A model generated the notes under the pieces. It did no database searches and had not been told where the DNA came from. It saw only the letters and a program-made list of their open reading frames with translations. Shown here piece by piece: positions 15,287 through 61,391 of a stretch of DNA of 64,000 nucleotides. The position numbers and the translations under genes are program-made. How positions within the stretch are numbered: position 1 is the stretch's first letter; every line of letters begins with the position of its first letter. This DNA is from an uncultured Chloroflexia bacterium (GTDB lineage: Bacteria; Chloroflexota; Limnocylindria; Limnocylindrales; CSP1-4), in the NCBI GenBank assembly GCA_963838285.1, contig CAWIQP010000011.1:75917-139916 (forward strand), written 5' to 3'.

Positions 15287-15643
15287 ATGACCGGCATCTG
15301 GTACGTAGTCGGCTTGGCGTTCGCGGGGGTTTCTTTCGTCTTCCTCGTGATCGGCCTGGCCTGGCTGATATCGCACCGAAACCGCGGCGATCGCCACAAG
15401 GGACTGCCCTACGAGAGCGGCATCGACACCTACGGCGACACCTGGGGCCGGTCGGCCATCTCGTTCTACGTGTACGCCCTGCTCTTCGTCGCCTTCGACG
15501 TGGAGGTCGTCTTCCTCTACCTGTGGGCGATCGTCTTCCGCGATCTGCTGATCGGCGGCCTGGTGAGCATGGGCACCTTCGTCGTGGTCCTGATGCTCGG
15601 GCTGGCCTACGCGTGGCGGAAGGGAGTCCTGACGTGGCGGTAG
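15287..15643 (+). CDS. nuoA: NADH-quinone oxidoreductase subunit A
   Basis: MTGIWYVVGLAF...DTYGDTWGRSAISFYVYALLFVAFDVEVVFLYLWA; GGAGAACG RBS before ATG 15287 (ORF track starts at GTG 15263). Confidence 0.9.
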   Translation: MTGIWYVVGLAFAGVSFVFLVIGLAWLISHRNRGDRHKGLPYESGIDTYGDTWGRSAISFYVYALLFVAFDVEVVFLYLWAIVFRDLLIGGLVSMGTFVVVLMLGLAYAWRKGVLTWR

Positions 15644-15865
15644 GCGGTCGAGCGCCCAAGGGACGCGAAGCGGCGACCGGCCGCGGGCTCGCGCCCGCAT
15701 CCAGGGGCGAGGTGACCGCCCCGATCGTGGTTCCCAACACTCTGTGGCAGTCGGCCGATCCGCTCGCCTACGACGGCGGCGCGGCCCACGGACATCACCC
15801 ATCTGCGCGAGTTCGGTCTTACGGCCGCGGCCCGTGACGACGCCGCCCGCTGGGGAGCGCTCCAG

Positions 15866-16351
15866 GTGATCCCCACCAACGCGGACTACATCCTCGATCT
15901 CATCCGCGCCAACAGCCTGTGGCCGCTCCTGTCGGGCCTGGCCTGCTGCGCGTTCGAGATGATGTCGGGCGCCACGAGCAAGTTCGACATGGACCGCTGG
16001 GGGATGTTCCCGTTCCGCGCCTCTCCCCGCCAGGCCGACGTGCTCATCGTCGCCGGGACGCTGACGACCAAGATGTCGGGCCCTCTCGTGCGGCTCTGGG
16101 AGCAGATGCCCGAGCCCAAGTGGTGCGTCGCGCTGGGAGACTGCACGGTCTCGGGCGGACGCTACAAGCGCAGCTACTCCGTGGTCCAGGGAATCGACCG
16201 GGTCATGCCGGTGGACGTCTACATCCCGGGCTGCCCGCCGCGCCCCGAAGGCCTGATCTACGGCATGCTCCAGCTCGGTCAGCTCGTCAAGGACCGCCGC
16301 GGTCACTGGGACGAGCGCGAGATCGGCCCGACCGCACCGGACGACATCTGA
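15866..16351 (+). CDS. nuoB: NADH-quinone oxidoreductase subunit B (N2 cluster)
   Basis: NSLWPLLSGLACCAFEMM...RASPRQADVLIVAGT...GDCTVSGG...YIPGCPPRPE; GTG start; N-terminus may extend upstream. Confidence 0.9.
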   Translation: MIPTNADYILDLIRANSLWPLLSGLACCAFEMMSGATSKFDMDRWGMFPFRASPRQADVLIVAGTLTTKMSGPLVRLWEQMPEPKWCVALGDCTVSGGRYKRSYSVVQGIDRVMPVDVYIPGCPPRPEGLIYGMLQLGQLVKDRRGHWDEREIGPTAPDDI

Positions 16352-16354
16352 CCG

Positions 16355-16912
16355 ATGGATCGAACCCTCAAGGCCCGGCTCGAAGAACGCCTCGGCGACC
16401 TGCTGCGCGCCCCGGTCTACCAGCGCCACGACGAGACGGAGATCCGCATCGAGCCGGGCAGCGTTCCCGAGGTGCTGCGGCGGCTCCACGACGCCCGCGA
16501 CCTGCGGTTCGAGATCCTGGCCGACCTCGCCGGCGTGGACACGGGCGAGGTCATGCAGGTCGTATACCACCTGTGGAGCCCGATCTCCTCGGACTGGCTG
16601 CGGGTCATCGCCGACGGCATCTCCCGCGAAGACCCTCGCGCGCCCTCGGCGACCTTCCTCTGGATCGGCGCCGAATGGCTGGAGCGCGAGGCCTACGACA
16701 TGTACGGCATCGTCTTCGAGGGCAACCGCGACCTGCGCCGCATCTTCATGCCGCCCGACTACACGAGCTTCCCGCTCCGCAAGGACTTCCTCCTGCCCGA
16801 CGACGCGGCCCGATCGCCTGGCGCCGGCGTTCGCCACATGGAGCGAGCCCACGGCCCGGCCGTCACGGCCGACGATCCGGCCGCCGGCATCCGCCGCGCG
16901 CCGGCGAGTTGA
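16355..16912 (+). CDS. nuoC: NADH-quinone oxidoreductase subunit C (30 kDa)
   Basis: ATG 4 nt after nuoB stop; EREAYDMYGIVFEGNRDLRRIFMPPDY motif. Confidence 0.9.
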   Translation: MDRTLKARLEERLGDLLRAPVYQRHDETEIRIEPGSVPEVLRRLHDARDLRFEILADLAGVDTGEVMQVVYHLWSPISSDWLRVIADGISREDPRAPSATFLWIGAEWLEREAYDMYGIVFEGNRDLRRIFMPPDYTSFPLRKDFLLPDDAARSPGAGVRHMERAHGPAVTADDPAAGIRRAPAS

Positions 16913-17035
16913 GGACCGCGATGCCAGACCGCCAGCCCGCCCCACGCCCCCAGCCGGCCCGCTCGAAGAAGCGCGGCGCCGCGCCGGAGCCGCAACCGCA
17001 GCCGCAAGCCGCGGCAGTCCGCGGACGACCCGCGC

Positions 17036-18217
17036 GTGATGCTGGACCGGCAGATTGGCGCGCTGTTCGAGCCGATTCCGCCCTACCCGACCCGGACCGA
17101 GCGCGAAGGCGAGTTCTACAGCCTGGGCGACGGCGAGATGTTCCTCAACATCGGGCCTCACCACCCGGCCACTCACGGCGTCCTGCGCCTCGTCATGAAG
17201 CTCTCGGGCGAGCAGATCGTGGACGTGGATCCCGTTCTCGGCTACCTCCACCGCGGCGTGGAGAAGATCTGCGAGAACTCCGACTACTACCACGTCATCG
17301 ACCAGGTGGACCCGCTCGAGTACATCAGCTCGCTGTTCCAGGAGTGGGCCGCGGTCCTCTCCTTCGAGAAGCTCATGGACGTGCAGGTCCCGCGCCGGGC
17401 GGAGTACATCCGCGTCCTGTCGGGCGAGCTGCTCCGCATCGCCAGCCACACCCTCTTCATGGGCTTCCTGGCGCTGGACCTGGGCGGCCTTACGCCGATC
17501 CTGTACAGCTTCATCGAGCGTGACGAGATCGTCGAGATGCTGGCGTCCCTGACCGGGGCCCGGATGCTGTTCAACTACTTCCGCATCGGCGGCGTCAACG
17601 GCGACCTCAACCACGAGTTCATGAGCCGCCTGGGCGACTGGATGACCCGCGCCGCGAAGCAGACCGAGGCCCAGGCCGGGCTGCTCAACGAGAACGAGAT
17701 CTTCGTCCGGCGAATGCGGGGCGTGGGCGTCCTGGACCGCGCCACCGCCATCCGCTACGGGGTCACGGGCGGCAACCTCCGCGCCGCCGGCGTTCCGTTC
17801 GACCTGCGGCGAGCCCACCCCTACAGCGTCTACCCGGAGCTGGACTTCAACATCCCGACCCGCGACGAGGGCGACTCGCTGGCGCGCTACCTGATCCGCG
17901 TCGACGAGATCCGCGAGTCGATCAAGATCGTCGACCAGTGCCTGCACAACATGCCCGACGGCCCGGTGATGGCCAGCCTGCCGCGGCTCATCCGGCCGCG
18001 TCCCGGGCGCGCCTGGGGGGCATGCGAAGGGCCGCGCGGGATGCTCGGCGTGTACACGATCAGCGACGGCTCCAACCACCCGTTCCGCTTCCGCATCCAC
18101 GACCCGAGCTTCCTGAACCTCGAGACCGTGCCGGCGCTGCTGCCGGGCAATCTGCTGGCCGACACGATGGCCATCGTCTCATCGCTTGACCCGGTCATGG
18201 GCGGGATCGACAAGTGA
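17036..18217 (+). CDS. nuoD: NADH-quinone oxidoreductase subunit D (49 kDa)
   Basis: MFLNIGPHHPATHGVLRLVMKLSGE...GYLHRGVEK...; 393 aa. Confidence 0.95.
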   Translation: MMLDRQIGALFEPIPPYPTRTEREGEFYSLGDGEMFLNIGPHHPATHGVLRLVMKLSGEQIVDVDPVLGYLHRGVEKICENSDYYHVIDQVDPLEYISSLFQEWAAVLSFEKLMDVQVPRRAEYIRVLSGELLRIASHTLFMGFLALDLGGLTPILYSFIERDEIVEMLASLTGARMLFNYFRIGGVNGDLNHEFMSRLGDWMTRAAKQTEAQAGLLNENEIFVRRMRGVGVLDRATAIRYGVTGGNLRAAGVPFDLRRAHPYSVYPELDFNIPTRDEGDSLARYLIRVDEIRESIKIVDQCLHNMPDGPVMASLPRLIRPRPGRAWGACEGPRGMLGVYTISDGSNHPFRFRIHDPSFLNLETVPALLPGNLLADTMAIVSSLDPVMGGIDK

Positions 18218-19620
18218 GCAACGCCGCCACGCCCGCCCCGGGCCGCATGCGCTCCGCGATCGGCTTCATGCGGAGCTTCCCGGCCGAGTTCTGGGGCCGC
18301 CTGTCGCTCGTCGAGCGCCTGGCCCTGATCTTCGTCCCGGCCGCCATCGTGGCGGCGGTGGTAACCGTTCTGGCCATCGTCCTGCTCGGTCCGCCGTTCC
18401 TGGACTTCCTGGGAGCCAACCTGCCGCTCGTCCGCTTCGCGGTCGCGGCCACGGCGATCCTGCTGCTGACGGTGCCGACGGCCTTCGTCCTGATCTACCT
18501 CGAGCTCAAGGTCATCGCCCGGATGAACCTGCGCATCGGGCCCAACCGGGTGGGGCCGTGGGGCGCGGCGATGAGCCTGATCCACGGCTTCAAGGTCCTC
18601 TCCAAGGAGGACTTCGCCCCGACCGGCGCCGACATCACCGTCTTCACCCTGGCCCCGGTGGTGACCTACATGGCCAGCGTGATGACCCTCCTGGTCATCC
18701 CGTTCGCGCCGGGCCTGATCGGCCAGGATCTCAACATCGGCCTGCTGTACTTCTTCTCGATGGGCGGCCTGACCGTCGTGGGCCTGCTGATGGCGGGCTG
18801 GTCGAGCTTCAACAAGTACTCGCTCCTCGGCGGCCTGCGCTCGGCGGCGCAGATCGTCAGCTACGAGATCCCACTCACCCTCTCGGTCGTGGGCGTCATC
18901 GTCCTCGCCGGAACGATGAGCATGAACCGCATCGTGCTGGCCCAGTCGGGCTCGTTCCTCGACTGGTTCGTATTCAAGCAGCCCCTGGCGGCGCTCATCT
19001 TCTTCATCGCCGCCACGGCGGAGGCCAACCGCACGCCGTTCGACATGACCGAGGCCGACTCCGAGATCGTGGCCGGTTTCGCCACCGAGTACTCGGGGAT
19101 GCGCTTCGGCTTCTTCTTCTTCGCCGAGTACGTGAACGTCTTCATCATCTCGGCGCTCATCACCACGATCTTCTTCGGCGGCTGGACCGCGCCGTTCCAG
19201 TGGCCGTGGGCATACAACCTGAACTGGTTCAATCCCTGGTCGTTCGGCTTCTTCGGCTGGCTCGCCATCGTCCTGACCGTCGGCTACTTCGGGACAGTCT
19301 TCTTCGCCATCTTCGCCCGCCTCTTGGGCGGCCGCGAGTGGGGCCTGTGGTCCTCGATGGGCCTGGGCTTCCTGTTCCTGCTCGTGGTCGTCGCCGGCCT
19401 CGTCGTCCTGGCCGGCTTTGTCGCCTTCGACTGGGTCCAGGGACTGGTCTGGTTCATGGCCAAGACCTACGTCTTCGTCATCACCTTCGTCTGGATGCGG
19501 GCCACGCTGCCGCGCGTCAGGGTCGACCAGCTGATGGGCTTCGCCTGGAAATGGCTGCTGCCGGCCTCGCTTGTCAACCTCTTCGTGACGGCGACCGCCG
19601 TCGTCCTGCTGAACCGGTGA
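18214..19620 (+). CDS. nuoH: NADH-quinone oxidoreductase subunit H
   Basis: GTGA overlap with nuoD stop; ...LKVIARMNLRIGPNRVGPWG...ANRTPFDMTEADSEIVAGFATEYSGMRFGFFFFAEY; follows nuoD directly (no E/F/G between). Confidence 0.95.
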   Translation: MSNAATPAPGRMRSAIGFMRSFPAEFWGRLSLVERLALIFVPAAIVAAVVTVLAIVLLGPPFLDFLGANLPLVRFAVAATAILLLTVPTAFVLIYLELKVIARMNLRIGPNRVGPWGAAMSLIHGFKVLSKEDFAPTGADITVFTLAPVVTYMASVMTLLVIPFAPGLIGQDLNIGLLYFFSMGGLTVVGLLMAGWSSFNKYSLLGGLRSAAQIVSYEIPLTLSVVGVIVLAGTMSMNRIVLAQSGSFLDWFVFKQPLAALIFFIAATAEANRTPFDMTEADSEIVAGFATEYSGMRFGFFFFAEYVNVFIISALITTIFFGGWTAPFQWPWAYNLNWFNPWSFGFFGWLAIVLTVGYFGTVFFAIFARLLGGREWGLWSSMGLGFLFLLVVVAGLVVLAGFVAFDWVQGLVWFMAKTYVFVITFVWMRATLPRVRVDQLMGFAWKWLLPASLVNLFVTATAVVLLNR

Positions 19621-19627
19621 GCGCGCG

Positions 19628-20443
19628 ATGAGCTACGTTCCGGGCCTGGGCATCGCGAAGGGCATGGCGCTGACCATGCGCCGCTTCTTCGCGCCGAAGG
19701 CCACGATCCAGTATCCCGAGACCGCGCCCGACATCGCCGTCCGCTTCCGCGGCCGTCTGCAGCTGCTGTACGACGAACTGGGCAACATCAAGTGCGAAAC
19801 CTGCTTCCAGTGCGCCCAGGCCTGCCCCGTGGAGTGCATCGACATGGGCGGCTTCGACACTCGGGGCCGCTTCCACGTCCACTGGGGCGCGGCCGAGATG
19901 TACGCCGAGCGGCGCGAGGAGTCGGCCCTGAGACGGTCCGGACGGCCCGTGCCCGACCCCGTCTACAGCCACTTCGACTCGATCGACACGGCCGCGGTGG
20001 ACAGCATCCTGGCCAGGTACGACTTCGACGGGGCCGAGATGCTGCCCATCCTCGAGTCGATCCAGGGCGCCTACGGCTACCTGCCCGTGGCCGCCCTCAA
20101 GCGAGTGAGCGAGGTCTCCGGGGCTCCGTACGCGCTCATCTACGGCACCGCCACGTACTACGGCCACCTGCGCTTCGACAAGCCCGGACGCAGCGTGGGC
20201 GTCTGCCGCTGCACGTCCTGCATCCTGGCCGGCTCCAGCCGGATCCACCGCGTGCTCGCCAGGGAGCTTGGGACGGAGATTGGCCGGCGGCCGGCCCCGG
20301 GCGGAGTGGCGCTGGAGCAGATCCCCGCCCACGTCCCCGGCGCGTCCTCGCCGCTCGTCACGCTCGATGGCTCGCCACAGCAGGTGACCGCCGCCGGCGC
20401 CGCGGCCTGGGCCCGCGCCCTGGTCGGGAGGAACGTGGCATGA
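19628..20443 (+). CDS. nuoI/nuoE: chimeric NuoI N-terminal half (single 4Fe-4S motif) fused in frame to a NuoE-like thioredoxin-fold domain
   Basis: aa 1-70 KATIQYPE...RFRGRLQLL...CETCFQCAQACPVECI = NuoI first CxxCxxCxxxCP only (no second motif in any frame 19860-19990); aa ~110-230 ILARYDFDGAEMLPILESIQGAYGYLPVAALKRVSEVSG...VGVCRCTSCILAGS = NuoE, but second Cys pair is replaced (EQIPAHVPGASSP). Confidence 0.7.
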   Translation: MSYVPGLGIAKGMALTMRRFFAPKATIQYPETAPDIAVRFRGRLQLLYDELGNIKCETCFQCAQACPVECIDMGGFDTRGRFHVHWGAAEMYAERREESALRRSGRPVPDPVYSHFDSIDTAAVDSILARYDFDGAEMLPILESIQGAYGYLPVAALKRVSEVSGAPYALIYGTATYYGHLRFDKPGRSVGVCRCTSCILAGSSRIHRVLARELGTEIGRRPAPGGVALEQIPAHVPGASSPLVTLDGSPQQVTAAGAAAWARALVGRNVA

Positions 20444-21777
20444 CGTCCGCCGCCATTCTCGCGACCCCGGCCCGCTTCCCGCGCCTTCTCCTCCCGGCGA
20501 CCCCGGGGCGGGACCCGCTGGATCTCGACGCCGCGGTTGCGGCCGGCGCCTTCACCGCACTGAAGGCCGCGGTGAACGATCTCAAGGCGGAGGGCGTGAT
20601 AGCCGCGCTGGTCGAGTCCGGGATGCGCGGCCGTGGCGGCGGCGGCTTCCCGATCGGCGAGAAGTGGCGAGCCTGCGCCGCTGCCGAATCCGATCGCCGC
20701 TACGTCGTGGTGAACGCCTATCAATCCGACCCGGCGGTGATGACCGACCGCGTTCTGCTGGAGGTCAACCCCTACGCGGTCGTCGAGGGCGCCGCGATCG
20801 CGGCTTTCGCCGTCGGCGCGAGCGAGGTGATCGTCGCGGTCCGGGCCGAAGCCACGGACGCGATCCGGGCCATGGAGTCGGCCGTGGCGGAGGCCGAGTC
20901 GGCCGGCTTCATCGGGGCTGACGTCCTCGGCACCGGGACGGAGATCCGCTTCTCGGTCAGGCCGCTGCAGGGCTCCTACATGCTCGGCGAGGAGACGGTC
21001 CTGCTGAAGGGCCTGGAGGGCAAGCGCGGCCAGCCGGAGCAGCAGCCGCCGTACGTCACCACTCGCGGCCTCTTCGGAGCGCCGACCCTGATCCACGGAC
21101 CGCAGACCTTCGCCGCCGTCCCGACCATCCTGTCCGGCGGCATCGCCGGCTTCCCGGAGACCGGGGCGCGGGCTTTCGCGGGCACCGTCCTGGTCCAGAT
21201 CTCCGGTACGGTCGCCCAGCCCGGAGTCGCCGAGGTTCCGTTCGGCGTCACACTTCGGGAGGTCCTCGACGTCGCTGGCGGCGTTCCCGCCCCGCATCGG
21301 CTCAAGGCCGTGCTGGTAGGCGGCCCGTCGGGTGGCATCCTGCCGCCGGAGGGTCTGAGCGTCGGCTTCGACCACGACTCCCTGGCGAAGGCGGGCGCGT
21401 ACGTCGGTTCCGGGTCGATCGTCGTCGTGGATCAGCACGGCTGCGTCGTGGACCTGGCCGCGGTCCTGACCCGCTTCTGCGCCGATCAGGCCTGCGGAAA
21501 GACGATCCCCTGCCGGATCGGCCTGCGGCGGCTGGCCGAGATCGGCGCCCGGATCTGCGAAGGACAGCCGCGCGGCGACGAGATAACCCGCCTGACCGAC
21601 CTCTCCGCCGACATAGTCGGCAGCGCCCTGTGCGACCACGAGCGTCGCGCCACGCTCGCCATGCTGAGCGTCGTCCGGTACTTCCGCGACGAGCTCGACG
21701 CCCACATCGTCCGTAACACCTGTCCCGCCGGGATCTGCCAGCCCAAGGCAGATGCCCGTGCCGGGACCGTTTCCTGA
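20440..21777 (+). CDS. nuoF: NADH-quinone oxidoreductase subunit F (51 kDa, FMN/NADH, N3)
   Basis: ATGA overlap with upstream stop; ESGMRGRGGGGFPIGEKW, GEETVLLKGLEGKRG, CGKTIPCRIG...C cluster motifs. Confidence 0.95.
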   Translation: MTSAAILATPARFPRLLLPATPGRDPLDLDAAVAAGAFTALKAAVNDLKAEGVIAALVESGMRGRGGGGFPIGEKWRACAAAESDRRYVVVNAYQSDPAVMTDRVLLEVNPYAVVEGAAIAAFAVGASEVIVAVRAEATDAIRAMESAVAEAESAGFIGADVLGTGTEIRFSVRPLQGSYMLGEETVLLKGLEGKRGQPEQQPPYVTTRGLFGAPTLIHGPQTFAAVPTILSGGIAGFPETGARAFAGTVLVQISGTVAQPGVAEVPFGVTLREVLDVAGGVPAPHRLKAVLVGGPSGGILPPEGLSVGFDHDSLAKAGAYVGSGSIVVVDQHGCVVDLAAVLTRFCADQACGKTIPCRIGLRRLAEIGARICEGQPRGDEITRLTDLSADIVGSALCDHERRATLAMLSVVRYFRDELDAHIVRNTCPAGICQPKADARAGTVS

Positions 21778-21785
21778 GGCGTCCC

Positions 21786-24596
21786 ATGCGAGAACCGACC
21801 CCCCGCCCCAGCCCCAGCGCATCGCCCTCGACCGCGAAGTCCCGGAAACCCGGCAAGGCGGCGAAATCGGCCCCGCTGGACTCGGCTCCGGTGGAGGCAA
21901 CCACGATCGCCCCAATCAATGCCGTCGCCCCGGCGTCGGCGGCCCTTGAGGCCTACGAGGAGCGTCCCGTCGAGTCGTTGCGCGGGCTGCGGCCGCAGGC
22001 CAACCAGAAGGCCGTTTGGAACAAGCGCGCCGGCCGGCCGGACAGCCGGCCGGACTCCAGGACGCCCTACGACACCGTGGTGCCGTTCGACGACTCGCTG
22101 GCGGAGCGACTGATCACGACCCAGGCTCCCCAGCGCCCGCTCTCGACGCCCACCTTCCGCCTCTCGGTCGACGGCCGCGTGGTCGAGGGCACCGAGGGCC
22201 AGACGATCCTGGAGGTCTGCCGCGCCAACGGCATCGAGATCCCGACGCTCTGCTACGAGCCAAAGCTGCCGGGCTTCGGGGCCTGCCGTATGTGCGTCGT
22301 CGAGGTCGACGGCGAGGAGCACCCGCCCATCTCCTGCTCCCGCGCCGCAGAGGCCGGGATGGTCGTTCGAACCCAGACCGAGCAGCTCCGCCGCCTGCGC
22401 CGCACGAATCTCGAGCTGATCTTCAGCGACCACAACGCCTACTGCCTGCCGCCCTGCCAGAACAAGTGCCCCAGCCACATCGACATCCCGGGCTTCCTCA
22501 AGGCCAACGCCGAGGGGCAGTTCCGGGAGTCGGCCCGCATCTTCAAGCGGACCATCCCCTTCCCGTCGATCCTGGGTCGCGTCTGCCCCGCCCCGTGCGA
22601 GGACCACTGCCGCCGCGACGAGGTGGACGAGGCCATCGCCATCCGGGACAGCCACCGCTACGCCGGCGACACGGTTCTCGCGGCGCAGAAGAACGGCATC
22701 GAGCCGCCGCTGCCGTTCGAGACGTCGCCGAAGACGGGCAGGCGGGTGGCGATCGTCGGGTCCGGGCCGGCCGGAATGGCCGCGGCTTACTACCTGCTCC
22801 TGTCCGGCCACGACGTCACCGTCTTCGAACGCGACCCGGAGCCCGGCGGAATGCTCCGCTACGGCATCCCCGAGTACCGCCTCCCGAAGGCCGACGTCCT
22901 CGAGCCCGAGTACGAGGCCGTCTGGCGCCTCGGCGCGCGGCTGGAGTGCAACAAGGCGCTCGGTCGGGACTTCAGCCTGGACGACCTGCGGGACCAGGGC
23001 TTCGACTCGACCATCGTCGCCACCGGCTGCTACGACACGAACAAGCTCAACATCCCCAACGAGAACGCCGACGGAGTCATCGACGGCCTGGAGTACCTGC
23101 GGATCGCCACGCTCGGGCTCCCGTACCCGGGCCACAAGGGCAGCCGGGTGGTGGTCGTGGGCGGCGGCTTCACGGCCATGGACTGCTGGCGGACCTCGAT
23201 CCGGCAGGGCGCAAAGCAGGTTACGCTCGTCTACCGCCGCGACATGAAGGACATGCCGGCCTCGAGCGAGGTCCACGAGGCCCTCGAGGAGGGCGGCACC
23301 GCCGTCTTCCAGGCCGGCCCCACCCGGGTCCTCGTCGACGCGAACAACAAGGTCACCGGCGTCGAGTTCATCCGCATGCGGCCCGGCGCGCCCGACGCGA
23401 GCGGCCGGCGCCGCCCCGAGCCCGCCCCCGGAACCGAGTTCGTGGTCGAGTGCGACCGCGTCCTGCTGGCCATCGGCCAGGGGCCGGACCTGTCGTGGAT
23501 CGGACCCGGCAACGAGGGCGTGGCCGCGGTCAAGTACAAGCTCGCCGCCGACGCGGTCACGTTCGAGACCGGCAGGCCGGGCGTCTTCGGCGCCGGGGAC
23601 GTCCGGATCGGGGCCGCGACCGTCGTCCAGGCCATCGCCGAGGGCCGCCGCTGCGCCTATGCCGTCGACGCCTACCTCAAGGGCAACGACCTGACCGAGC
23701 TGCGGACGCGCCAGACGCTGGCCGAAGTGGAGCCGACCTTCCTCTCGATCGTGCCCTACACCGACGAGCCCAAGGAGGCTCGCCACCGTCTCAAGGCGAT
23801 GCCGGCGAAGGAGCGGTCCAGGAGCTACGTCGAGTACGAGATCCCGTACACGCCGGCGGAGGTCATGGCCGAGTCCACCCGCTGCCTGCAGTGCACCTGC
23901 GAGGCGCTGGGCAACTGCGACCTGCGCCGCCTCGGCATCGAGTACGGGACGACTCTACCGACGCTCGAGCCGGGCCACGATCAGGGCGCCGGCTTCCGGA
24001 GCGTCACCGAGAACCGCTTCACCGGCGCCAACCACGACTACATCCGCGACGACAGCCACGCCTTCATCCTGCGCGAGCCATCTCGCTGCATCGACTGCGG
24101 GCGCTGCGCCGCCGTCTGCGCGGACGTCGTGGGTGCGGCCTGCTACGACTTCATGCGGACCGGCTTCGACACGCTCGTGACGACGCCGCTGGACATGAGC
24201 CTCAACGACACGCCGTGCGTCTCCTGCGGCCGCTGCGCCGAGACGTGCCCCACGGGCGCGCTGATGCCCAAGCCGCGCGTCCTCGAGAAGTACGACGTCG
24301 ACGAAAGCCGCTGCATCCTGTGCGGCATCTGCGTCGACGCCTGCCCCTACGACGCCCTGCGCGGCGGTCAGGACAACGAGCTCGCCCACACCAGCCGGGC
24401 CAACCCGGAGGTCGATCTGATCGGGCTGGCCGCCGTCGAGCGCGAGACCGAGGTGACCTACGTCCGGCGCGAGCGCGACTGGCTGGCCCACGCCCTCGCC
24501 GAAGGACGCGTCGAGGACCCGGCGAGGATGCTGCCGGCCCTGCCGCAGTCCCTCGCCCCCGCCCGGAGCAATCGCAGGGGGGCAGATCGCCAATGA
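21786..24596 (+). CDS. chimeric Fe-S flavoprotein: NuoG-N-terminal-like 2Fe-2S/His-Cys3 domain + GltD-like FAD/NAD(P)H oxidoreductase + C-terminal 2x[4Fe-4S] ferredoxin, in the position of nuoG
   Basis: Pro/Ala-rich N-terminus; FRLSVDGRVVEGTEGQTILEVCRANGIEIPTLCYEPKLPGFGACRMCVVEV (NuoG/Nqo3 N1b-like); HNAYCLPPCQNKCPSHIDIPGFL...RVCPAPCEDHC (GltD-type); RVAIVGSGPAGMAAAYYL...GGMLRYGIPEYRLPK; CIDCGRCAAVC...CVSCGRCAETCP...CILCGICVDACP; no Mo-bisPGD-like NuoG C-terminal domain. Confidence 0.8.
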   Translation: MREPTPRPSPSASPSTAKSRKPGKAAKSAPLDSAPVEATTIAPINAVAPASAALEAYEERPVESLRGLRPQANQKAVWNKRAGRPDSRPDSRTPYDTVVPFDDSLAERLITTQAPQRPLSTPTFRLSVDGRVVEGTEGQTILEVCRANGIEIPTLCYEPKLPGFGACRMCVVEVDGEEHPPISCSRAAEAGMVVRTQTEQLRRLRRTNLELIFSDHNAYCLPPCQNKCPSHIDIPGFLKANAEGQFRESARIFKRTIPFPSILGRVCPAPCEDHCRRDEVDEAIAIRDSHRYAGDTVLAAQKNGIEPPLPFETSPKTGRRVAIVGSGPAGMAAAYYLLLSGHDVTVFERDPEPGGMLRYGIPEYRLPKADVLEPEYEAVWRLGARLECNKALGRDFSLDDLRDQGFDSTIVATGCYDTNKLNIPNENADGVIDGLEYLRIATLGLPYPGHKGSRVVVVGGGFTAMDCWRTSIRQGAKQVTLVYRRDMKDMPASSEVHEALEEGGTAVFQAGPTRVLVDANNKVTGVEFIRMRPGAPDASGRRRPEPAPGTEFVVECDRVLLAIGQGPDLSWIGPGNEGVAAVKYKLAADAVTFETGRPGVFGAGDVRIGAATVVQAIAEGRRCAYAVDAYLKGNDLTELRTRQTLAEVEPTFLSIVPYTDEPKEARHRLKAMPAKERSRSYVEYEIPYTPAEVMAESTRCLQCTCEALGNCDLRRLGIEYGTTLPTLEPGHDQGAGFRSVTENRFTGANHDYIRDDSHAFILREPSRCIDCGRCAAVCADVVGAACYDFMRTGFDTLVTTPLDMSLNDTPCVSCGRCAETCPTGALMPKPRVLEKYDVDESRCILCGICVDACPYDALRGGQDNELAHTSRANPEVDLIGLAAVERETEVTYVRRERDWLAHALAEGRVEDPARMLPALPQSLAPARSNRRGADRQ

Positions 24597-24645
24597 CCGT
24601 CATCGCGTACCGGGCCGCCGAACCGGTCCTGGAGGGAGGCGAGGC

Positions 24646-25194
24646 ATGCCGATAGGCGACTCGATCCCGCTGCTCGGGATCCGCTGGGACGACATCCTGT
24701 TCGTCGTTCTGTCCGCCACGCTTCTCGTGTCGGCCCTGATGGTGGTCACGCTGCGCGACATCATCCGCTGCGGCCTGGCCCTGATCGTCTCGTTCGCGTC
24801 CCTGGCGGGCATCTACGCCCTGCTCGGCGACCCGCTCATCGCCGCCACGCAGGTGCTCGTCTACATCGGCGCCATCAGCATCCTGATCCTGTTCGCGATC
24901 ATGATGACCCAGACGAAGGACGCGCCGGCGAGGCTGGTCTTCCAGACTCAGGCCTGGCTCGCCGCCGGCGCCGCGGCGGTCATCGCGGTGGTGATCGCCG
25001 CGACGGTTCTGGCCACGACGTGGCCCGCCGGCGGGCAGCGCCTCTGGACCGCCACCGCGGACGTCGCACATCTGCTCTTCCACGACTACGTTCTGCCGTT
25101 CGAGGTGGTCAGCGTCCTGCTGACGGCGGCGGTCGTCGGGGCGGTCTACCTGGCCCGCCGCGAGCCCAGCCGGCACGAGGAGGATCGGTCGTGA
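24646..25194 (+). CDS. nuoJ: NADH-quinone oxidoreductase subunit J
   Basis: GGAGGGAGG RBS; 5 TM ...ATQVLVYIGAISILILFAIMMTQ. Confidence 0.9.
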   Translation: MPIGDSIPLLGIRWDDILFVVLSATLLVSALMVVTLRDIIRCGLALIVSFASLAGIYALLGDPLIAATQVLVYIGAISILILFAIMMTQTKDAPARLVFQTQAWLAAGAAAVIAVVIAATVLATTWPAGGQRLWTATADVAHLLFHDYVLPFEVVSVLLTAAVVGAVYLARREPSRHEEDRS

Positions 25195-25502
25195 GCAACT
25201 CGCTCGACTCGTACCTGGTGCTGTCCGGCCTCCTCTTCGCCATCGGCACGTTCGGCTTCCTGGCCCGGCGCAACGCGATCAGCATGCTCATGTCGATCGA
25301 GCTGATGATCAACGCCGTCAATCTGACCATCCTGGCCTTCGGGGCGTTCGTGCCGCCGCTGAACGGGCACGCGGCGGTCATCGCCCTGATCGTGATCGCG
25401 GTCGCGGCGGCCGAGGCGACGGTGGGCCTGGCGATCGTCGTGGCCATCTACCGGAACCGCAAGACGCCGCTGGTCGACGAGTACGACTCGATGAAGGACT
25501 AG
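25191..25502 (+). CDS. nuoK: NADH-quinone oxidoreductase subunit K
   Basis: GTGA overlap with nuoJ stop; LFAIGTFGFLARRNAISMLMSIELMINAVNL. Confidence 0.9.
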   Translation: MSNSLDSYLVLSGLLFAIGTFGFLARRNAISMLMSIELMINAVNLTILAFGAFVPPLNGHAAVIALIVIAVAAAEATVGLAIVVAIYRNRKTPLVDEYDSMKD

Positions 25503-25506
25503 GGCG

Positions 25507-27463
25507 ATGAATCTTCCTCATCCCGCTGATCCCGCTGCTGCCCCTGGCCGGCTTCGCCGTCACCGGCCTGTTCGGCCGCGCGATGGGCCGGGAGTCGCAC
25601 CGGATCGCCATCTGGGCGGTCGTGGCCTCGTGGATCGTGGCGATGGTCGTCGCCTTCGGCGCCCTGGCCCACGTCGGCATCGCCGCGGCAGGCATCGACG
25701 TCAAGCTCTGGGACTGGATCCCGGCCACCGGCTTCCACGCCGACTTCGGCTTCTTCGTCGATCCGCTGACGGCCTGCCTGCTGATCGTGGTCACGACCAT
25801 CGGCATGCTCGTCCACATCTACTCGATCGGCTACATGGCCCACGACGCCGGCAAGTGGCGCTTCTTCGCCTACCTGAACCTGTTCATGTTCTCGATGCTC
25901 GTGCTGGTCCTGGCCGACAACTTCCTGCTCGTCTTCGCCGGCTGGGAGCTGGTGGGCCTGTGCAGCTACCTGCTGATCGGGTTCTGGTACCCGCGCCGGT
26001 CCGCGGCCGAGGCCGCCAAGAAGGCTTTCCTGGTCAACCGCGTCGGCGACATGGGCTTCGCCCTCGGGATCATGGCCATCTGGACCCAGCTCGGCACTCT
26101 CAACATGCAGCAGGTCTTCGCCGCGTTCGGAAGCGTCCCGCACGAGTGGCAGATCGCCATCGCCGCGCTTCTGCTCTGCGGCGCGGTCGGCAAGAGCGCC
26201 CAGTTCCCGCTCCACGTCTGGCTGCCGGACGCGATGGAGGGCCCCACGCCGGTCTCCGCCCTGATCCATGCCGCGACCATGGTCAACGCCGGCGTGTACC
26301 TCGTGGCCCGCTGCAACCCGATCTTCGGCGCCGCGCCCGAGGTGATGGTCGTCGTGGCCGCGATCGGCATCTTCACCGCCATCCTGGCCGCTTCGATCGC
26401 GTTCACCCAGACCGACATCAAGCGCGTCCTGGCCTACTCGACGCTCTCCCAGCTGGGCTACATGTTCGCCTCGCTGGGCGTCGGGGCGTGGACGGCGGCG
26501 ATCTTCCACCTGATGAGCCACGGCTTCTTCAAAGGCCTGCTCTTCCTCGACTCCGGCTCGGTCATCCACGCCGTCGACGGCGAGCAGGACATGCGCAAGA
26601 TGGGCGGCCTGGCGAAGAAGATTCCCGTCACCTACGCGACGATGCTCATCGGCTCGGTGGCCATCTCCGGCGTCCCGCCGCTGGCCGGGTTCTTCTCCAA
26701 GGACGAGATCCTGGGCGGCGCCTTCAAGAACGGCTTCCTGTGGGTCTGGGCGATCGGCTTCGCCGTCGCCGGCATGACCGCCTTCTACATGTTCCGGCTC
26801 ATGGGCCTGACCTTCTGGGGCGAGAGCCGCGTCGACCCGGAGAAGGAATCTCACATCCACGAGTCGCCGCCGTCGATGACCCGGCCGCTCATCCTGCTGG
26901 CCATCCCGGCGGTCTTCCTGGGCATGCTGATCGGCTTTCCGCCTGAATCGGGGCTGCTCCACCAGTGGCTCCAGCCGGTCTTCGAGGCCACCGTCGCGGC
27001 GAGCGGCCGGACAGAGGCCGCCTACAACTTCTTCGGCATCGACGGCGCGCTGGCAATCGGGACGACGGGCCTCGTGGCAATCGCCATAGTCGTGGCCTGG
27101 CGACTCTTCGGCGTGGACATGCCGGCCCTGGGTCTGCGGGCTCAGCCGCGCCCCGAGCGCGTTCGTGAGATCAGCGCCAGGCCGGGACTCGCCTTCCTGT
27201 ACCGCGGCTCCTCGAACAAGTGGTGGTTCGACGACCTGTACAACCTGCTCTTCGTGGTCTGGGGCGGCAGGCTCGCGGCCGCGGTCTTCTGGTTCGACCG
27301 CACGATAGTCGACGGCACCGTCAACGGCGTCGGCGCCGTGACCACCGGCGCGGGCGTCAGGCTCCGCCGCGTCCAGACGGGCCACGTCCAGAACTACGCC
27401 CTCGGCATCGCTCTCGGCCTGATCGTCATGGCCGTCGGCTACATCCTGATCGCGGTTCGGTAG
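25507..27463 (+). CDS. nuoL: NADH-quinone oxidoreductase subunit L, with apparent 1-bp insertion near 25516
   Basis: ATG 25507 MNL then frame shifts to FLIPLIPLLPLAGFAVTGLFGRAMGRE (ORF 25583..27463); removing one C from CTTCCTC restores MNLLIPLIPLL; antiporter-like body with long C-terminal horizontal helix. Confidence 0.9.
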
Positions 27464-27475
27464 GAGGAAGAGACG

Positions 27476-28999
27476 ATGAGCCTGCCGATCCTGAGCCTGA
27501 TCACGTTCACGCCGCTCGTCGGGGCGCTCGTGGTCGCCGTCCTGCCGTCGCGCCGCCCCGACCTCATCCGGCGCACCACCCTGGGCTTCACGCTGCTGGC
27601 ATGGGTCATGTCGCTGCTGCTGCTCGCGGCCTACGCCTTCGGCCAGACCGGCTTCCAGTTCAAGGAGGCGGCCGACTGGATCCCGTCCTTCGGCATCCAG
27701 TACAAGGTGGGCGTCGACGGCCTGAGCGTCCTGATGGTCGTGCTGACGACGACCCTGACGTGGATCAGCGTGCTGGCCAGCTTCGGCCCGATCAAGGACC
27801 GAGTGAAGGGCTACATGATCTCCTTCCTCGTCCTCGAGGTCGGCATGATCGGCGTCTTCGTCGCCCTGGACCTCTTCCTGTTCTACATCTTCTGGGAGAT
27901 CGTCCTGGTCCCGATGTACCTGATCATCGGCATCTGGGGCGGCGCCAACCGCGTCTACGCGACGATGAAGTTCGTGCTGTACACGCTCGTCGGGTCGCTG
28001 CTGATGCTGGTCGCGATCCTCGCCACGGCCTACGCCTACCAGGTGGCGCACGCCGGTTCCTGGGTCGGAGCCTTCGACTACGTGCAGCTCCAGCAGTTCG
28101 CGGCCTCCGGCGGCTTCGGTGACAACTTCCAGATCCTTGCCTTCCTGGCGCTCTTCCTGGCCTTCGCCATCAAGGTGCCGATGTTCCCGTTCCACACCTG
28201 GCTGCCCGACGCCCACACCGAGGCGCCCACGGCCGGCTCGGTGATCCTCGCCGGCGTCCTGCTCAAGCTCGGCGCCTACGGCCTGATCCGGTTCGCGGTG
28301 CCGCTCTACCCCTACGGGGCTCACACGTTCGCCTGGCCGATCATCGTCCTGAGCGTCATCGCCATCGTCTACGGCGCGATCGTGTCGATCGTCCAGCCCG
28401 ATCTCAAGCGCCTGATCGCCTACAGCTCGGTCAGCCACATGGGCTTCGTGACGCTCGGAATCTTCGTGTTCAGCGCCACCGCCCTCCAGGGCGCGATCCT
28501 GCAGATGATCAACCACGGCCTGATCACGGGCGGCCTCTTCCTCCTCGTCGGCGTCGTCTACGAGCGGACCCACGACCGAACCATCGCCAAGATGGGCGGT
28601 CTGGCGGCGGCGATGCCGATCTGGGCGACGGTCTTCGGCTTCTTCATCCTGGCCTCCGCCGGCCTGCCCGGCCTCTCCGGCTTCGTCGGCGAGTTCCTGG
28701 TCTTCGTCGGGTCGTTCGGGATCGCGCCGGTTATCGCGGTGGCCTCGATCATCGTCATGGTCCTGGCCGCCACCTACCTGCTGTGGATGTTCCAGCGCGT
28801 CGCCTTCGGCGTGCTGTCCGACTTCCTGCGAGGCCTCGGCGGTCACCTGACCGACATGACCGGGACCGAGCTGGCGACGCTCCTTCCGCTCGCCGCGCTG
28901 ATCGTCGTGCTCGGGCTGTTCCCGAGCCTCGTGCTCGATCTCCTCCGCGCTCCCGCCCAGGCGTTCCTGGCGGCGGCCGGAGTCGCGGTCGGCGGCTGA
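27476..28999 (+). CDS. nuoM: NADH-quinone oxidoreductase subunit M
   Basis: 507 aa antiporter-like subunit; ...FPFHTWLPDAHTEAPTAGSVILAGVLLKLGAYGLIRF. Confidence 0.95.
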   Translation: MSLPILSLITFTPLVGALVVAVLPSRRPDLIRRTTLGFTLLAWVMSLLLLAAYAFGQTGFQFKEAADWIPSFGIQYKVGVDGLSVLMVVLTTTLTWISVLASFGPIKDRVKGYMISFLVLEVGMIGVFVALDLFLFYIFWEIVLVPMYLIIGIWGGANRVYATMKFVLYTLVGSLLMLVAILATAYAYQVAHAGSWVGAFDYVQLQQFAASGGFGDNFQILAFLALFLAFAIKVPMFPFHTWLPDAHTEAPTAGSVILAGVLLKLGAYGLIRFAVPLYPYGAHTFAWPIIVLSVIAIVYGAIVSIVQPDLKRLIAYSSVSHMGFVTLGIFVFSATALQGAILQMINHGLITGGLFLLVGVVYERTHDRTIAKMGGLAAAMPIWATVFGFFILASAGLPGLSGFVGEFLVFVGSFGIAPVIAVASIIVMVLAATYLLWMFQRVAFGVLSDFLRGLGGHLTDMTGTELATLLPLAALIVVLGLFPSLVLDLLRAPAQAFLAAAGVAVGG

Positions 29000-29010
29000 G
29001 AGGAGATGGC

Positions 29011-30471
29011 ATGAGCTGGTCCGACGTCGGAACGATCTCGCCGGTCGTCATCGCCGTCCTGGTCGCGGCGGCGATCCTGGTCGTCGACATGGCCGTGCCC
29101 GGCCGGCGTACCCCGATTCTCGTCACCGCCCTGGGCGGCCTGGGCATCGTGGCCGTGGCGATCCTGATCCAGGCGGGCCACGGCGGCAGCGCCTTCGACG
29201 GCGCCTACTCCCTCGACAACCTGACCGTCTTCCTCGACATGCTGTTCGTGGCCATCGCGGCCCTGACCATCATGTTCGCGGTCGACTACCTGGAGCCGCG
29301 CGGCCTGCCCCTCGCCGAGTTCGCGGCGGTCCTGGTCTTCGCCATCACCGGCGCGATGCTCGTCGCCGGCTCGACGGACCTGCTGCTTCTCTTCGTCGCC
29401 CTGGAGCTGATGGTCCTGCCCGGCTATATGCTGGCCGGCTTCGCTCGGCGCGACCCGTACTCGACCGAGGGCGCGATCAAGTACTTCCTGCTCGGCTCGT
29501 TCTCGAGCGCGATCCTGCTCTTCGGCCTGGCCTACGACTGGGGGATGACCGGCACCACGAGCGTTGCCGGCGTGTCCGCGGCCCTCGCCACGGCCATCGC
29601 CCACGGCTCGATCCAGCCTGGCCTGGCCCTGGGTCTGGCCTTCATGACCGCCGGCGTCGCGTTCAAGATGGCGGCCGTGCCGTTCCACTACTGGACTCCG
29701 GACGCGTACCAGGGCTCGCCGACACCCGTCACGGCGTACCTGTCCGTGGGCCCCAAGATCGGCGCCTTCGCCATCGCCCTGCGCCTCTTCGTCGGCGCGC
29801 TCGGCCCGCTCAAGGCCGACTGGCTGCCCGTCGTCATCGTCCTGGCCGCTCTCACGATGACCCTCGGCAATCTGGTGGCGATCAGCCAGGACAACGTCAA
29901 GCGAATGCTGGCCTACTCCTCCATCGCCCACACCGGCTACATCCTGGTCGGCCTGGCGGCCTACGCCGGCGGCCAGCAGAGCGGCCTATCGGCGATCCTG
30001 TTCTACGGGGCCGCCTACACGTTCATGAACATGGGCGCCTTCGCGATCATCGCCGCTCTGCAGCGGCGGCCGGGAGTGAGCAGCCAGATCGCAACGTTCG
30101 CCGGGCTGGGCCGGCGCGATCCCTGGCTCGGCGCGCTGATGGCGCTCTTCCTGCTGTCGCTGACCGGCATCCCGCCGCTCGCCGGCTTCTGGGCCAAGGC
30201 CTACGTGATCCTGGCCGCTATCCAGGCCGGCGGATGGCTCACCGCCCTGGCGGTCCTGGCGATGATCAACGCGGCGGCGGCGGCCTTCTACTACCTGCGG
30301 GTCGTGGTCTACATGTACATGCGCGAGCCCGCCGAGGAGACCGCGCCGAGTTCCCCCGGACGGCTGTTCCGGACCGGCCTGGCGGTCACGGGCGTGGCGA
30401 CGCTCGTCTTCGGGCTCTTCCCGGCCCTCGTGACGGCAGCCAGCAACGCCGCGAACGTCTTCCGCGGCTAG
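29011..30471 (+). CDS. nuoN: NADH-quinone oxidoreductase subunit N
   Basis: GAGAGGAG RBS; ...AAVPFHYWTPDAYQGSPTPVTAYLSVGPKIGAFAI. Confidence 0.9.
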   Translation: MSWSDVGTISPVVIAVLVAAAILVVDMAVPGRRTPILVTALGGLGIVAVAILIQAGHGGSAFDGAYSLDNLTVFLDMLFVAIAALTIMFAVDYLEPRGLPLAEFAAVLVFAITGAMLVAGSTDLLLLFVALELMVLPGYMLAGFARRDPYSTEGAIKYFLLGSFSSAILLFGLAYDWGMTGTTSVAGVSAALATAIAHGSIQPGLALGLAFMTAGVAFKMAAVPFHYWTPDAYQGSPTPVTAYLSVGPKIGAFAIALRLFVGALGPLKADWLPVVIVLAALTMTLGNLVAISQDNVKRMLAYSSIAHTGYILVGLAAYAGGQQSGLSAILFYGAAYTFMNMGAFAIIAALQRRPGVSSQIATFAGLGRRDPWLGALMALFLLSLTGIPPLAGFWAKAYVILAAIQAGGWLTALAVLAMINAAAAAFYYLRVVVYMYMREPAEETAPSSPGRLFRTGLAVTGVATLVFGLFPALVTAASNAANVFRG

Positions 30472-46460: not shown

Positions 46461-46586
46461 CTCTCGCGAGCTCGGGCCTGACAAGCGATTCGGCCTCCTG
46501 GGCGAGCGCTGAGGTGGAGCGGAGTATAACCCAGGCCACGCCTGGACACGGCGGCCCGGCCGAGGCGGCAGAGCCGGCGGCCGATC

Positions 46587-54040: not shown

Positions 54041-54124
54041 TGGCGGCTACTAGCGGCGGGACTGATTGCGCCCGTGGTATCCAGCCGCATCCCAGGCGGC
54101 CGGACTGGCGTTCGCAGGTGGGGA

Positions 54125-55908: not shown

Positions 55909-55927
55909 GACCCGCGTGCTCGCGGAC

Positions 55928-57046: not shown

Positions 57047-57076
57047 GTTTGTCTCACTCCCCTGAAGACCGGGCAT

Positions 57077-61390: not shown

Positions 61391-61391
61391 C

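Follow-up and report, generated by a model that had tools for sequence, protein, structure and literature searches.

A Limnocylindria complex I operon with an apparently split NuoI and an Nfn/Stn-like flavoprotein module

We analyzed a 64,000-nucleotide stretch of DNA (the window; contig CAWIQP010000011.1) from an uncultured Chloroflexota bacterium (soil/freshwater). The guanine-plus-cytosine (G+C) content of the window is 70%. The subject of this study is its respiratory complex I locus at positions 15287-30471, where 13 genes on the + strand form a single tight operon in the order nuoA-B-C-D-H-(NuoI N-half::NuoE-like)-(NuoF-like)-(2Fe-2S::GltD::NuoG-type iron-sulfur [Fe-S]::NuoI C-half)-J-K-L-M-N. 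The three proteins in parentheses are called IE, F, and G' below, and the two NuoI halves I_N and I_C. Intergenic spacing ranged from -4 to 222 nucleotides and was ≤12 nucleotides at 9 of the 12 junctions. An earlier note on this DNA had placed all 13 genes and had listed NuoA, B, C, D, H, and J through N as present; each gene was found on the + strand where that note put it.

Ten of the 11 core subunits (A, B, C, D, H, I, and J through N) gave a Pfam match, and the eleventh, NuoI, was recovered in two halves. The matches were obtained for nuoA (15287-15643; PF00507 Oxidored_q4, E = 7e-31), nuoB, which encodes the N2 cluster subunit (15866-16351; PF01058 Oxidored_q6), nuoC (16355-16912; PF00329 Complex1_30kDa), nuoD (17036-18217; PF00346 Complex1_49kDa), nuoH (18214-19620; PF00146 NADHdh, E = 1e-102), nuoJ (24646-25194; PF00499 Oxidored_q3), nuoK (25191-25502; PF00420 Oxidored_q2), nuoL (25583-27463; PF00662, PF00361, and PF01010, Proton_antipo_N/M/C), nuoM (27476-28999), and nuoN (29011-30471; both PF00361 Proton_antipo_M). 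Chance matches are excluded because the Pfam E-values across the operon genes ranged from 1e-18 to 1e-163. In NuoB, the CC, GDC, and GCPP motifs start at residues 27, 91, and 122, and we take CC/GxC/GCPP to be the N2 ligands, as in Nqo6. NuoD carries GPHHPATHG and GYLHRGVEK, presumably the quinone-site loop and tyrosine motifs of Nqo4. Both the N2 and the quinone-site motifs are intact. The nuoD and nuoH genes overlap by 4 nucleotides, with no N-module genes between them. NuoH itself (468 residues) is unusually long; its Pfam match (residues 81-460) covers 380 residues against a 298-position profile, which corresponds to an N-terminal extension and at least one insertion.

NuoI was found on two different polypeptides. 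The N-half occupies residues 1-86 of the 271-residue IE protein (19628-19885, +; ratio of nonsynonymous to synonymous substitution rates [dN/dS] 0.10). It matched positions 1-62 of the TIGR01971 profile and consists of the NuoI N-terminal segment and the first motif, C56-x2-C59-x2-C62-x3-C66-P; residues 9-77 were NuoI-type and aligned to residues 6-68 of Nqo9 (2fug_9). The C-half forms the end of the 936-residue G' protein (24270-24596, +; dN/dS 0.07), spans residues ~829-900, and matched profile positions 71-113. In this half, one strand leads into the second motif, C843-x2-C846-x2-C849-x3-C853-P, after which come a NuoI-type tail and a variable end. Its NuoI matches in the PDB were 8qby_I (residues 93-133) and 2fug_9 (residues 86-124). 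TIGR01971 has 121 positions and a curated cut-off of 113 bits. Scored separately, the halves reached 51 bits (N-half) and 57 bits (C-half), so that neither shows the two CxxCxxCxxxCP motifs and the score above 113 bits of a single-polypeptide NuoI. When residues 1-86 of the 271-residue protein and residues 830-912 of the 936-residue protein were rejoined in silico, one continuous match was obtained over positions 1-113 of 121, with 98 bits (E = 2e-28), just below the cut-off. The 16 best families for the rejoined sequence were all NuoI-type (13 NuoI models together with NdhI, FpoI, and the formate hydrogenlyase iron-sulfur subunit).

No further nuoI gene lies between nuoH and nuoJ, and the third Cys motif of the 936-residue protein has no partner motif inside the same protein. 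In the 2x[4Fe-4S] ferredoxin fold, one motif supplies three of the Cys that hold a given cluster, and the other motif supplies the fourth. Because each cluster draws on both motifs, neither NuoI half can hold a cluster alone. These results indicate that NuoI has very probably been split in two, with the E-F-G' cassette lying in frame inside nuoI. When the cassette was deleted in silico, the order became A-B-C-D-H-I-J-K-L-M-N. In a search with the rejoined NuoI, the only matches were I_N::E fusions and pieces from the C terminus of G' (P0407, P0409, P0414), so that the search was uninformative on canonical nuoI. The earlier note had read NuoI and NuoE as one open reading frame (ORF). The fusion does exist, but it involves only the N-half of NuoI (TIGR01971 1-62), whereas the C-half ends the 936-residue protein. 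The E/F/G block, which the note had placed after nuoI, is inserted within it.

The rest of the 271-residue ORF (19886-20443, +) encodes a linker and a NuoE/NfnC-like part with a match to PF01257 (2Fe-2S_thioredx, E = 3e-18) and a dN/dS of 0.17-0.25. NuoE-type sequence covers residues 117-250, and the linker before it is conserved. A helical F-binding region (residues ~121-190) is followed by a thioredoxin-like region (residues 191-271) with the cluster site C193-x-C195-x2-C198 and a conserved His235; the second Cys pair of the usual four is absent. The site, within 20198-20440, is thus a possible 3Cys-1His site, as judged from these residues. The best relatives of the E part in the PDB were NfnC (9n5u_C), StnA (8oh5_A), and the C subunit of 9bov. 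In loci L001, L077, L084, and L087 and in Thermogemmatispora (L088), the whole thioredoxin-like domain is gone and the helical part is kept.

The F gene (20440-21777, +) overlaps the preceding stop codon as ATGA and encodes a 445-residue flavoprotein similar to NuoF and to the core of BfuB, with the domains PF01512 Complex1_51K, SLBB, and PF10589 NADH_4Fe-4S. It carries the Gly-rich loop for flavin mononucleotide (FMN), GEET, the cluster motif C-G-K-T-I-P-C, and CPAGIC. HydB, StnB, and NfnB scored 322-347 bits against F (HydB 8a6t_B, 347), compared with 287 for mycobacterial NuoF and 231 for Thermus Nqo1. The alignment covered only the core of HydB (148-573 of 630) and StnB (110-526 of 584). 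Two domains of Bfu B subunits are absent from F, a thioredoxin-like one at the N terminus and a ferredoxin one at the C terminus, and only a CPAGxC remnant is kept.

Motif conservation was assessed in 52-53 family members taken from the fetched loci and aligned with HydB and NfnA reference segments. The form C-x2-T-x2-C (C-G-K-T-I-P-C in the window) was present in 48 of the 52 Limnocylindria-clade F sequences aligned. The canonical C-x2-C-x2-C is kept in four basal Limnocylindria (L056, L067, L076, L082) and in distant lineages. In most Thr variants, an additional Cys lies five residues upstream, and ~11 sequences have neither Cys; the idea that the upstream Cys always replaces the lost ligand was therefore only partly borne out. 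The altered site may hold a [3Fe-4S] cluster or reflect a ligand swap. Within the class, conservation is high for the Gly-rich loop and GEET of F and for its cluster region and fourth Cys. With these motifs conserved and a dN/dS of 0.175, simple decay of F was rejected.

The G' ORF (21786-24596, +; 936 residues) contains Fer2_4 (residues 124-198), Fer4_20 (220-299), Pyr_redox_2 (320-620), Fer4_Nqo3 (761-826), and Fer4 (837-859). This order agrees with the earlier description of the protein at the NuoG position as a NuoG N terminus joined to a GltD-like flavoprotein. No molybdopterin domain was detected by Pfam in G', as the note had anticipated, and the overlapping ORFs in alternative frames, where the note had named a full NuoG C-terminal domain as a possible refutation, gave no Pfam match. 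The NuoG/NfnA-type [2Fe-2S] domain (22146-22400; PF13510, E = 2e-20) has the ligands C156, C167, C170, and C184, all four invariant in 53 sequences. It is followed by the GltD/NfnB-like insert (22401-23705; PF14691, PF07992, and alignment to the NfnA of Caldicellulosiruptor [Csac]), which has two [4Fe-4S] sites (C220, C224, C228, C267, C271, C275, and His290), a GxGxxG motif for flavin adenine dinucleotide (FAD), and a Rossmann fold with Y483-R484-R485 for reduced nicotinamide adenine dinucleotide (NADH) or its phosphate (NADPH), together NAD(P)H. The NuoG/HydA-type Fe-S region (23871-24269; PF22117 Fer4_Nqo3, Fer4, and alignment to NfnA/StnC; dN/dS 0.04) contains a C700-x2-C-x-C-x5-C711 cluster and a 2x[4Fe-4S] ferredoxin-like domain (C768..C778, C811..C821).

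The solved structures closest to G' over residues 124-853 were Csac NfnA (9bov_A, 532 bits), Sporomusa StnC (8oh5_C, 471), and an archaeal NfnA (9n5u_A, 463), whereas canonical NuoG chains gave only ~50-80 bits over the first hundred residues. The features kept in G' are the Fe-S Cys, the FAD GxGxxG, GGMLRYGIPEYRLPK, the second Rossmann fold with YRR..MPA, and the [2Fe-2S] ligands. The Fe-S Cys, His290, YRR, and the Cys of I_C were invariant in 53 sequences from Limnocylindria and Ktedonobacteria, the latter 45-49% identical. The YRR..MPA stretch is common to G' and NADPH-dependent NfnA, and a link of the GltD site to NADPH is plausible from these motifs. The invariant His290 (22653-22655) aligned to the cluster-ligating Lys of StnC/NfnA; in StnC, this residue (K170), a ligand of the FAD-proximal cluster, is strictly conserved and essential (Stn paper). 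The formate dehydrogenase-like (Fdh-like) C-terminal domain of NfnA/StnC, with its two further clusters, is absent, as G' ends ~80 residues past the point where the domain starts in those proteins, and the residues in this stretch resemble NuoI. The motif of the NuoI C-half aligned exactly at the start of the first cluster motif of that domain. In an AlphaFold2 model of G' built with 53 homologues, the [2Fe-2S] and GltD domains were modeled well (predicted local distance difference test [pLDDT] 85-96 for the GltD insert). The structure matches of G', E, and F bear out the likeness to the Nfn/Stn-type (Bfu-family) subunit set that had been proposed for the E-F-G' trio.

The N terminus of G' is a low-complexity extension (residues 1-120; 21786-22145, +), delimited by its conservation pattern, with a dN/dS of 0.35. 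These ~120 residues are rich in Pro, Ala, Ser, and Arg and vary in length and sequence among relatives, and only the last ~25 (AERLLTTQAPQRP...) are conserved. Because of this variation, the true start codon of G' is uncertain. An exact-sequence look-up of the 936-residue protein gave no match.

A scan of one genome per species with a five-sequence I_N::E alignment as the query, the reach of which was limited to Limnocylindria, yielded at least 515 candidate loci confirmed by tblastn. The best 80 of these were all from metagenome-assembled genomes (MAGs) of Chloroflexota (Ca. Limnocylindria, Limnocylindrales, Limnocylindrus, and Aquidulcis). The order A-B-C-D-H-IE-F-G'-J-K-L-M-N was identical in all 80 Limnocylindria loci with enough flanking sequence. 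These results indicate that the split-NuoI design is standard across the class Limnocylindria, as far as gene order can tell. The closest relatives of G' comprised >120 clusters at 76-93% identity, several of them named Candidatus Limnocylindrales. The same 13 genes in the same order were present on a 2.98-Mb contig of one relative, and two contigs from a relative with 79% identity showed it as well. Averaged across loci, identity to the window was 87% for NuoB, 79% for G', 65% for IE, and 61% for F. By the Nei-Gojobori method with seven to nine close pairs, the dN/dS values of all 13 genes were between 0.05 and 0.20 (F, 0.175; IE, 0.19; G', 0.12). Values for single regions were 0.11 (GltD insert), 0.04 (NuoG-type clusters), and 0.25 (thioredoxin-like region of E). 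Every part, including both NuoI halves and the linker, is under purifying selection. Misassembly, which the earlier note had named as a possible refutation, and pseudogenization are excluded because the order is conserved in relatives and dN/dS is low.

More distant relatives were also found. I_N::E fusions only 25-30% identical to that of the window (L003, L004/5) occur in the same D-H-IE-F-G' context. In the Chloroflexi bacterium GCA_016190715.1 (L087, 6481-14281), the genes are nuoA-B-C-D-H-I_N::E'-F-G'::I_C, with G' ending in the NuoI C-half. The L087 genes downstream of this operon encode a flavin reductase, a GYD protein, a ferredoxin, and pyruvate:ferredoxin oxidoreductase subunits. With the L087 G' as the query, homologues of ~800 residues were detected in the cultured Thermogemmatispora carboxidivorans, T. 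aurantia, T. argillosa, and Ktedonobacter robiniae, as well as in many Ktedonobacterales MAGs and one Dehalococcoidales MAG. A four-gene cluster, nuoB-I_N::E'-F-G'::I_C, is present in T. carboxidivorans (L088, 7150-12409), K. robiniae (L089, 7300-12406), and a 1.36-Mb metagenome contig (L090, 7319-12406), its E' part being without the thioredoxin-like domain. NuoB, the split NuoI, and the flavoprotein module therefore form the conserved unit, because Ktedonobacteria keep only these together. A further candidate for a distant fusion, the P0220 cluster (L086), was removed as a Por-Bfu cluster with a generic ferredoxin motif; on this Chloroflexota contig (7819-15933), pyruvate:ferredoxin oxidoreductase subunits surround a protein joining a ferredoxin motif to a NuoE-like part and a full-length Bfu B subunit. 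Several representatives of 50% clusters (P0200, P0250, P0218, P0182) proved to be frameshifted translations and were disregarded. In public annotation, the proteins of the module are labeled 'FAD-dependent oxidoreductase', 'formate dehydrogenase major subunit', and 'NAD(P)H-dependent oxidoreductase subunit E'.

We then considered the module against what has been reported for the Bfu family. The bifurcating site consists of FMN and the B1 and C1 clusters (Schut et al. 2022, PMC9304861; Li et al. 2025), deletion of the C1-type cluster in Stn abolished bifurcation (Stn paper), and non-bifurcating homologues are without B2-B5 (Schut et al. 2022, PMC9304861). In the window, F contains only Complex1_51K, SLBB, and NADH_4Fe-4S, with none of the extra Fe-S domains of Bfu B subunits. 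The FMN loop is retained, and neither B1 nor C1 has its four Cys, both being remodeled. By these published characteristics, the module is judged to be non-bifurcating because the B-subunit Fe-S domains are absent, C1 is remodeled or lost, and B1 is altered. The enzyme would not be expected to bifurcate, as the ferredoxin branch and an intact FMN/two-cluster site are gone. Limnocylindria are described as aerobic (preprint), and an aerobic lifestyle fits with the loss of a low-potential ferredoxin branch. The alternative input suggested by the earlier note can thus be divided: its NADPH link is plausible from the invariant FAD/NADPH motifs, but a ferredoxin-linked or bifurcating input finds the core features absent or remodeled.

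Gene anatomy, homologies, conserved ligand and nucleotide-binding motifs, missing bifurcation domains, and purifying selection are observed features of the locus. On this basis, the locus probably encodes an NAD(P)H:menaquinone oxidoreductase that pumps protons, does not bifurcate, and has two nucleotide sites, one with FAD for NADPH and one with FMN for NADH. We give even odds to the use of both NADPH and NADH as inputs. In the proposed origin, an Nfn/Stn-type (Bfu-derived) three-gene cassette would have entered nuoI in frame in an operon of the 11-subunit type. The products are (i) the NuoI N-half with an E-like tether, (ii) the F-like FMN protein, and (iii) a protein combining the [2Fe-2S] domain, the GltD-type FAD/NADPH domain, the NuoG-type [4Fe-4S] region, and the NuoI C-half. 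The two NuoI halves would contribute 4 + 4 Cys and rebuild the 2x[4Fe-4S] fold (N6a/N6b) across two chains, and the split NuoI would anchor the module covalently on both sides, replacing the missing NuoG C-terminal domain.

The FAD of the GltD domain would accept electrons from NADPH and the FMN of F those from NADH, and electrons from both sites would pass through the NuoG-type clusters to N6a/N6b, to N2 in NuoB, and on to menaquinone, with protons pumped by the canonical membrane arm. In NfnA/StnC, the chain FAD-A7-A6-A3-A2-A1 leads to FMN, and a side branch A2-A4-A5 runs into the inactive Fdh-like domain, a dead end regarded as an evolutionary remnant (Nfn/Stn papers). In the proposed enzyme, this former dead end would become the exit to N6a/N6b, N2, and quinone. 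The broadest claim, a first proton-pumping, NADPH-respiring (dual NADPH/NADH) complex I that evolved independently by cassette insertion into NuoI, has N6 clusters each ligated from two polypeptides, and serves as the standard respiratory entry in Limnocylindria and also occurs in Ktedonobacteria, is one to which we assign a little less than an even chance.

Several observations weigh against the proposed enzyme. As to structure, residues 644-936 of G', the Fe-S-rich C-terminal region, were not modeled by AlphaFold2 (pLDDT ~26), and the rejoined NuoI, predicted with no alignment, gave an unusable model (pLDDT 39). As to a proton-pumping arm for the whole family, no nuoJ-N follows the operon in L087, and no other nuo gene was found within 10 kb of the Ktedonobacteria clusters. 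The carrier genomes may also have a second, canonical complex I. As to the nucleotide sites, the choice between NADPH and NADH at the GltD site is read from motif likeness only. In F, the NADE segment near the flavin is N-[AG]-Y-x family-wide, so that the NADH site is possibly altered or inactive; F has undergone the Cys-to-Thr change in its cluster motif and is the least conserved subunit.

These last points would fit a complex I using NADPH only, in which the GltD FAD would be the sole physiological input, and F and the E-like part would have lost NADH dehydrogenase activity and persist as a scaffold fixing the large subunit to NuoI. The mean identity of F (61%, against 79% for G'), the NADE replacement, the NNVET segment (HGPQT in the window), the lost cluster Cys, the loss of the E thioredoxin-like domain in several lineages, and the FMN loop of T. 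carboxidivorans, which reads GAGRLTG, all fit such a scaffold. However, the dN/dS of F (0.175) is close to those of NuoH and NuoJ, and its Gly-rich loop, GEET, cluster region, and fourth Cys are highly conserved within the class, with the four-Cys motif retained in basal and distant lineages. Furthermore, the [2Fe-2S] cluster of G' is invariant in 53 sequences, and in NfnABC the corresponding cluster forms part of the route between F and the chain. We regard this alternative as unlikely.

A slightly less likely alternative is that the enzyme mainly balances pyridine nucleotides rather than serving respiration. With its two nucleotide sites wired together, it would be a quinone-buffered NADPH/NADH transhydrogenase, and it could also work by reverse flow, in which proton motive force and quinol would drive the reduction of NADP+. 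The module descends from transhydrogenases in which electrons pass from FAD through the Fe-S chain to FMN (Nfn/Stn papers), and both nucleotide sites and the connecting clusters are conserved. Yet the covalent join to NuoI, a full operon with intact N2 and quinone motifs, the complete antiporter-like arm, and purifying selection speak against this role, and in a class described as aerobic (preprint) forward flow to quinone would be strongly favored.

The ancestry of the module in the Bfu family also raises a bi- or confurcating enzyme of the 'Nuo-Bfu' type, which would pass electrons from reduced ferredoxin and NAD(P)H to menaquinone, as predicted for Geobacter; membrane-bound, quinone-reducing Bfu enzymes have indeed been predicted (Schut et al. 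2022, PMC9304861). Since the B subunit has neither the ferredoxin-binding domain at its C terminus nor the N-terminal domain, C1 is remodeled or lost, B1 is changed, and the organisms are described as aerobic (preprint), we consider this very improbable. Finally, an artefact or a decaying paralogue (fusions created by misassembly or frameshift, or a degenerate copy beside a canonical nuo operon) could be suspected from an apparent frameshift in the adjacent NDUFAF7-like gene, but it is scarcely credible given that 80 independent genomes, and lineages with no more than 25-47% identity, have an identical architecture, that dN/dS is 0.05-0.20 for each gene, and that the junction regions are conserved.

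Complex I is a textbook case of modular enzyme evolution, and we know of only one mode of attachment of its NADH module that is understood in detail. The locus would represent a second mode, with Nfn/Stn-type rather than Nqo1-3 ancestry and a join through split NuoI rather than through the NuoG C-terminal domain. If the GltD site feeds the quinone pool, NADPH would be respired directly with proton pumping, which to our knowledge no characterized complex I does. Models of redox balance would then change for Limnocylindria (Ellin6529), which are among the dominant uncultured lineages of soils and lakes. Because the clusters beside FMN are remodeled, the module is a naturally occurring 'bifurcation-off' case that can be compared in the current debate on how Bfu enzymes work. 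As the cultured Thermogemmatispora and Ktedonobacter carry the same module, these ideas are directly testable. Current annotation hides the system, and pipelines would call nuoI and nuoG missing.

The surroundings of the operon were also inspected. Directly 5' of nuoA lies a gene for an NDUFAF7-like methyltransferase (13799-14852, +; PF02636, with matches in two frames), a possible complex I assembly factor. When the intact 402-residue orthologue of L001 was compared with the window by tblastn, residues 42-213 matched in one frame and residues 211-386 in the next. The apparent frameshift, at about nucleotides 14313-14326, may be a sequencing error or indicate a true pseudogene. The synteny folK, unknown gene, methyltransferase, nuoA is common to the window and L001. 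Farther downstream, recF, dnaN, and dnaA are encoded at 54568-59042 (-) and yidC and jag at 59948-62465 (+), and G+C falls to ~0.655 at 56-60 kb. A replication origin is probably located near 59-60 kb, with the nuo operon ~30 kb away. A 1763-residue ORF at 40184-45475 (-) gave weak matches to protein O-mannosyltransferases (PMT, PMT_4TMC), and its neighbor at 48337-50118 (+) is a TMEM260-like/PMT_2 gene. Two other large ORFs, at 46530-48350 and 51782-54046, had no Pfam match.

We compared the system with known complexes. The earlier note knew of no characterized complex I with a GltD-type subunit in place of NuoG, and likewise none was found in the literature searched. No prior description of this complex I was found there either, within an incomplete coverage, and the Limnocylindria genomic papers and the Chloroflexi-supergroup preprint that were searched contain no mention of complex I or NADH dehydrogenase. 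The system is apparently an undescribed variant of complex I. With the canonical enzymes (Thermus thermophilus Nqo1-15 and Escherichia coli NuoA-N), it shares the eleven core Q-module and membrane-arm subunits, the N2 and quinone-site motifs, an F-type flavoprotein, an E-type partner, and a NuoG-type N-terminal Fe-S domain. It differs from them in having the NuoI halves on two polypeptides, the input genes in nuoI instead of between nuoD and nuoH, no NuoG molybdopterin-like domain, and a GltD-type FAD/NADPH domain in the NuoG-like part. Also, its F and E are nearer to Bfu enzymes than to Nqo1/Nqo2, and E is fused to the NuoI N-half.

NfnABC and StnABC (9BOV, 8OH5, 9N5U) have the same trio of E-like, F-like, and large subunits, the same domain order in the large subunit, and the YRR..MPA stretch at the NADPH site, with 460-530 bits over residues 124-853. 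Unlike these enzymes, the window system has no Fdh-like C-terminal domain, which Stn needs to form its tetramer, and no N- or C-terminal Fe-S domains on its B subunit and hence no ferredoxin site. Furthermore, the Lys ligand of StnC is His, the E- and F-type clusters beside FMN are remodeled, and the cassette ends are fused to the NuoI halves and embedded in a nuo operon. 'Nuo-Bfu' has been predicted in Geobacter, Deferribacteres, Planctomycetes, and Nitrospirae (Schut et al. 2022, PMC9304861). It has 14 separate subunits, with a full BfuABC in place of NuoEFG, compared with 13 genes here, occurs in different taxa, and has a B subunit with ferredoxin-type domains and a predicted confurcation of NADH and ferredoxin. 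The GltD insert and the split NuoI of the window have no counterpart in the description of Nuo-Bfu given there.

In mbx-like operons, a gltD-related flavoprotein takes the place of NuoI and has been proposed to reduce NAD(P)+ (Degli Esposti 2015, PMC4758237). These operons share with the window a GltD-type NAD(P)(H) flavoprotein at the NuoI position of a complex I-related membrane complex. However, GltD replaces NuoI there, whereas NuoI is retained as two halves in the window, where GltD lies within a NuoG/NfnA-type subunit accompanied by F- and E-like proteins. The 11-subunit 'ancestral' complex I (NuoABCDHIJKLMN, with no N-module) has the same gene order as the window once the cassette is removed; in contrast to it, the window adds a module predicted to oxidize NAD(P)H and to be attached covalently through NuoI.

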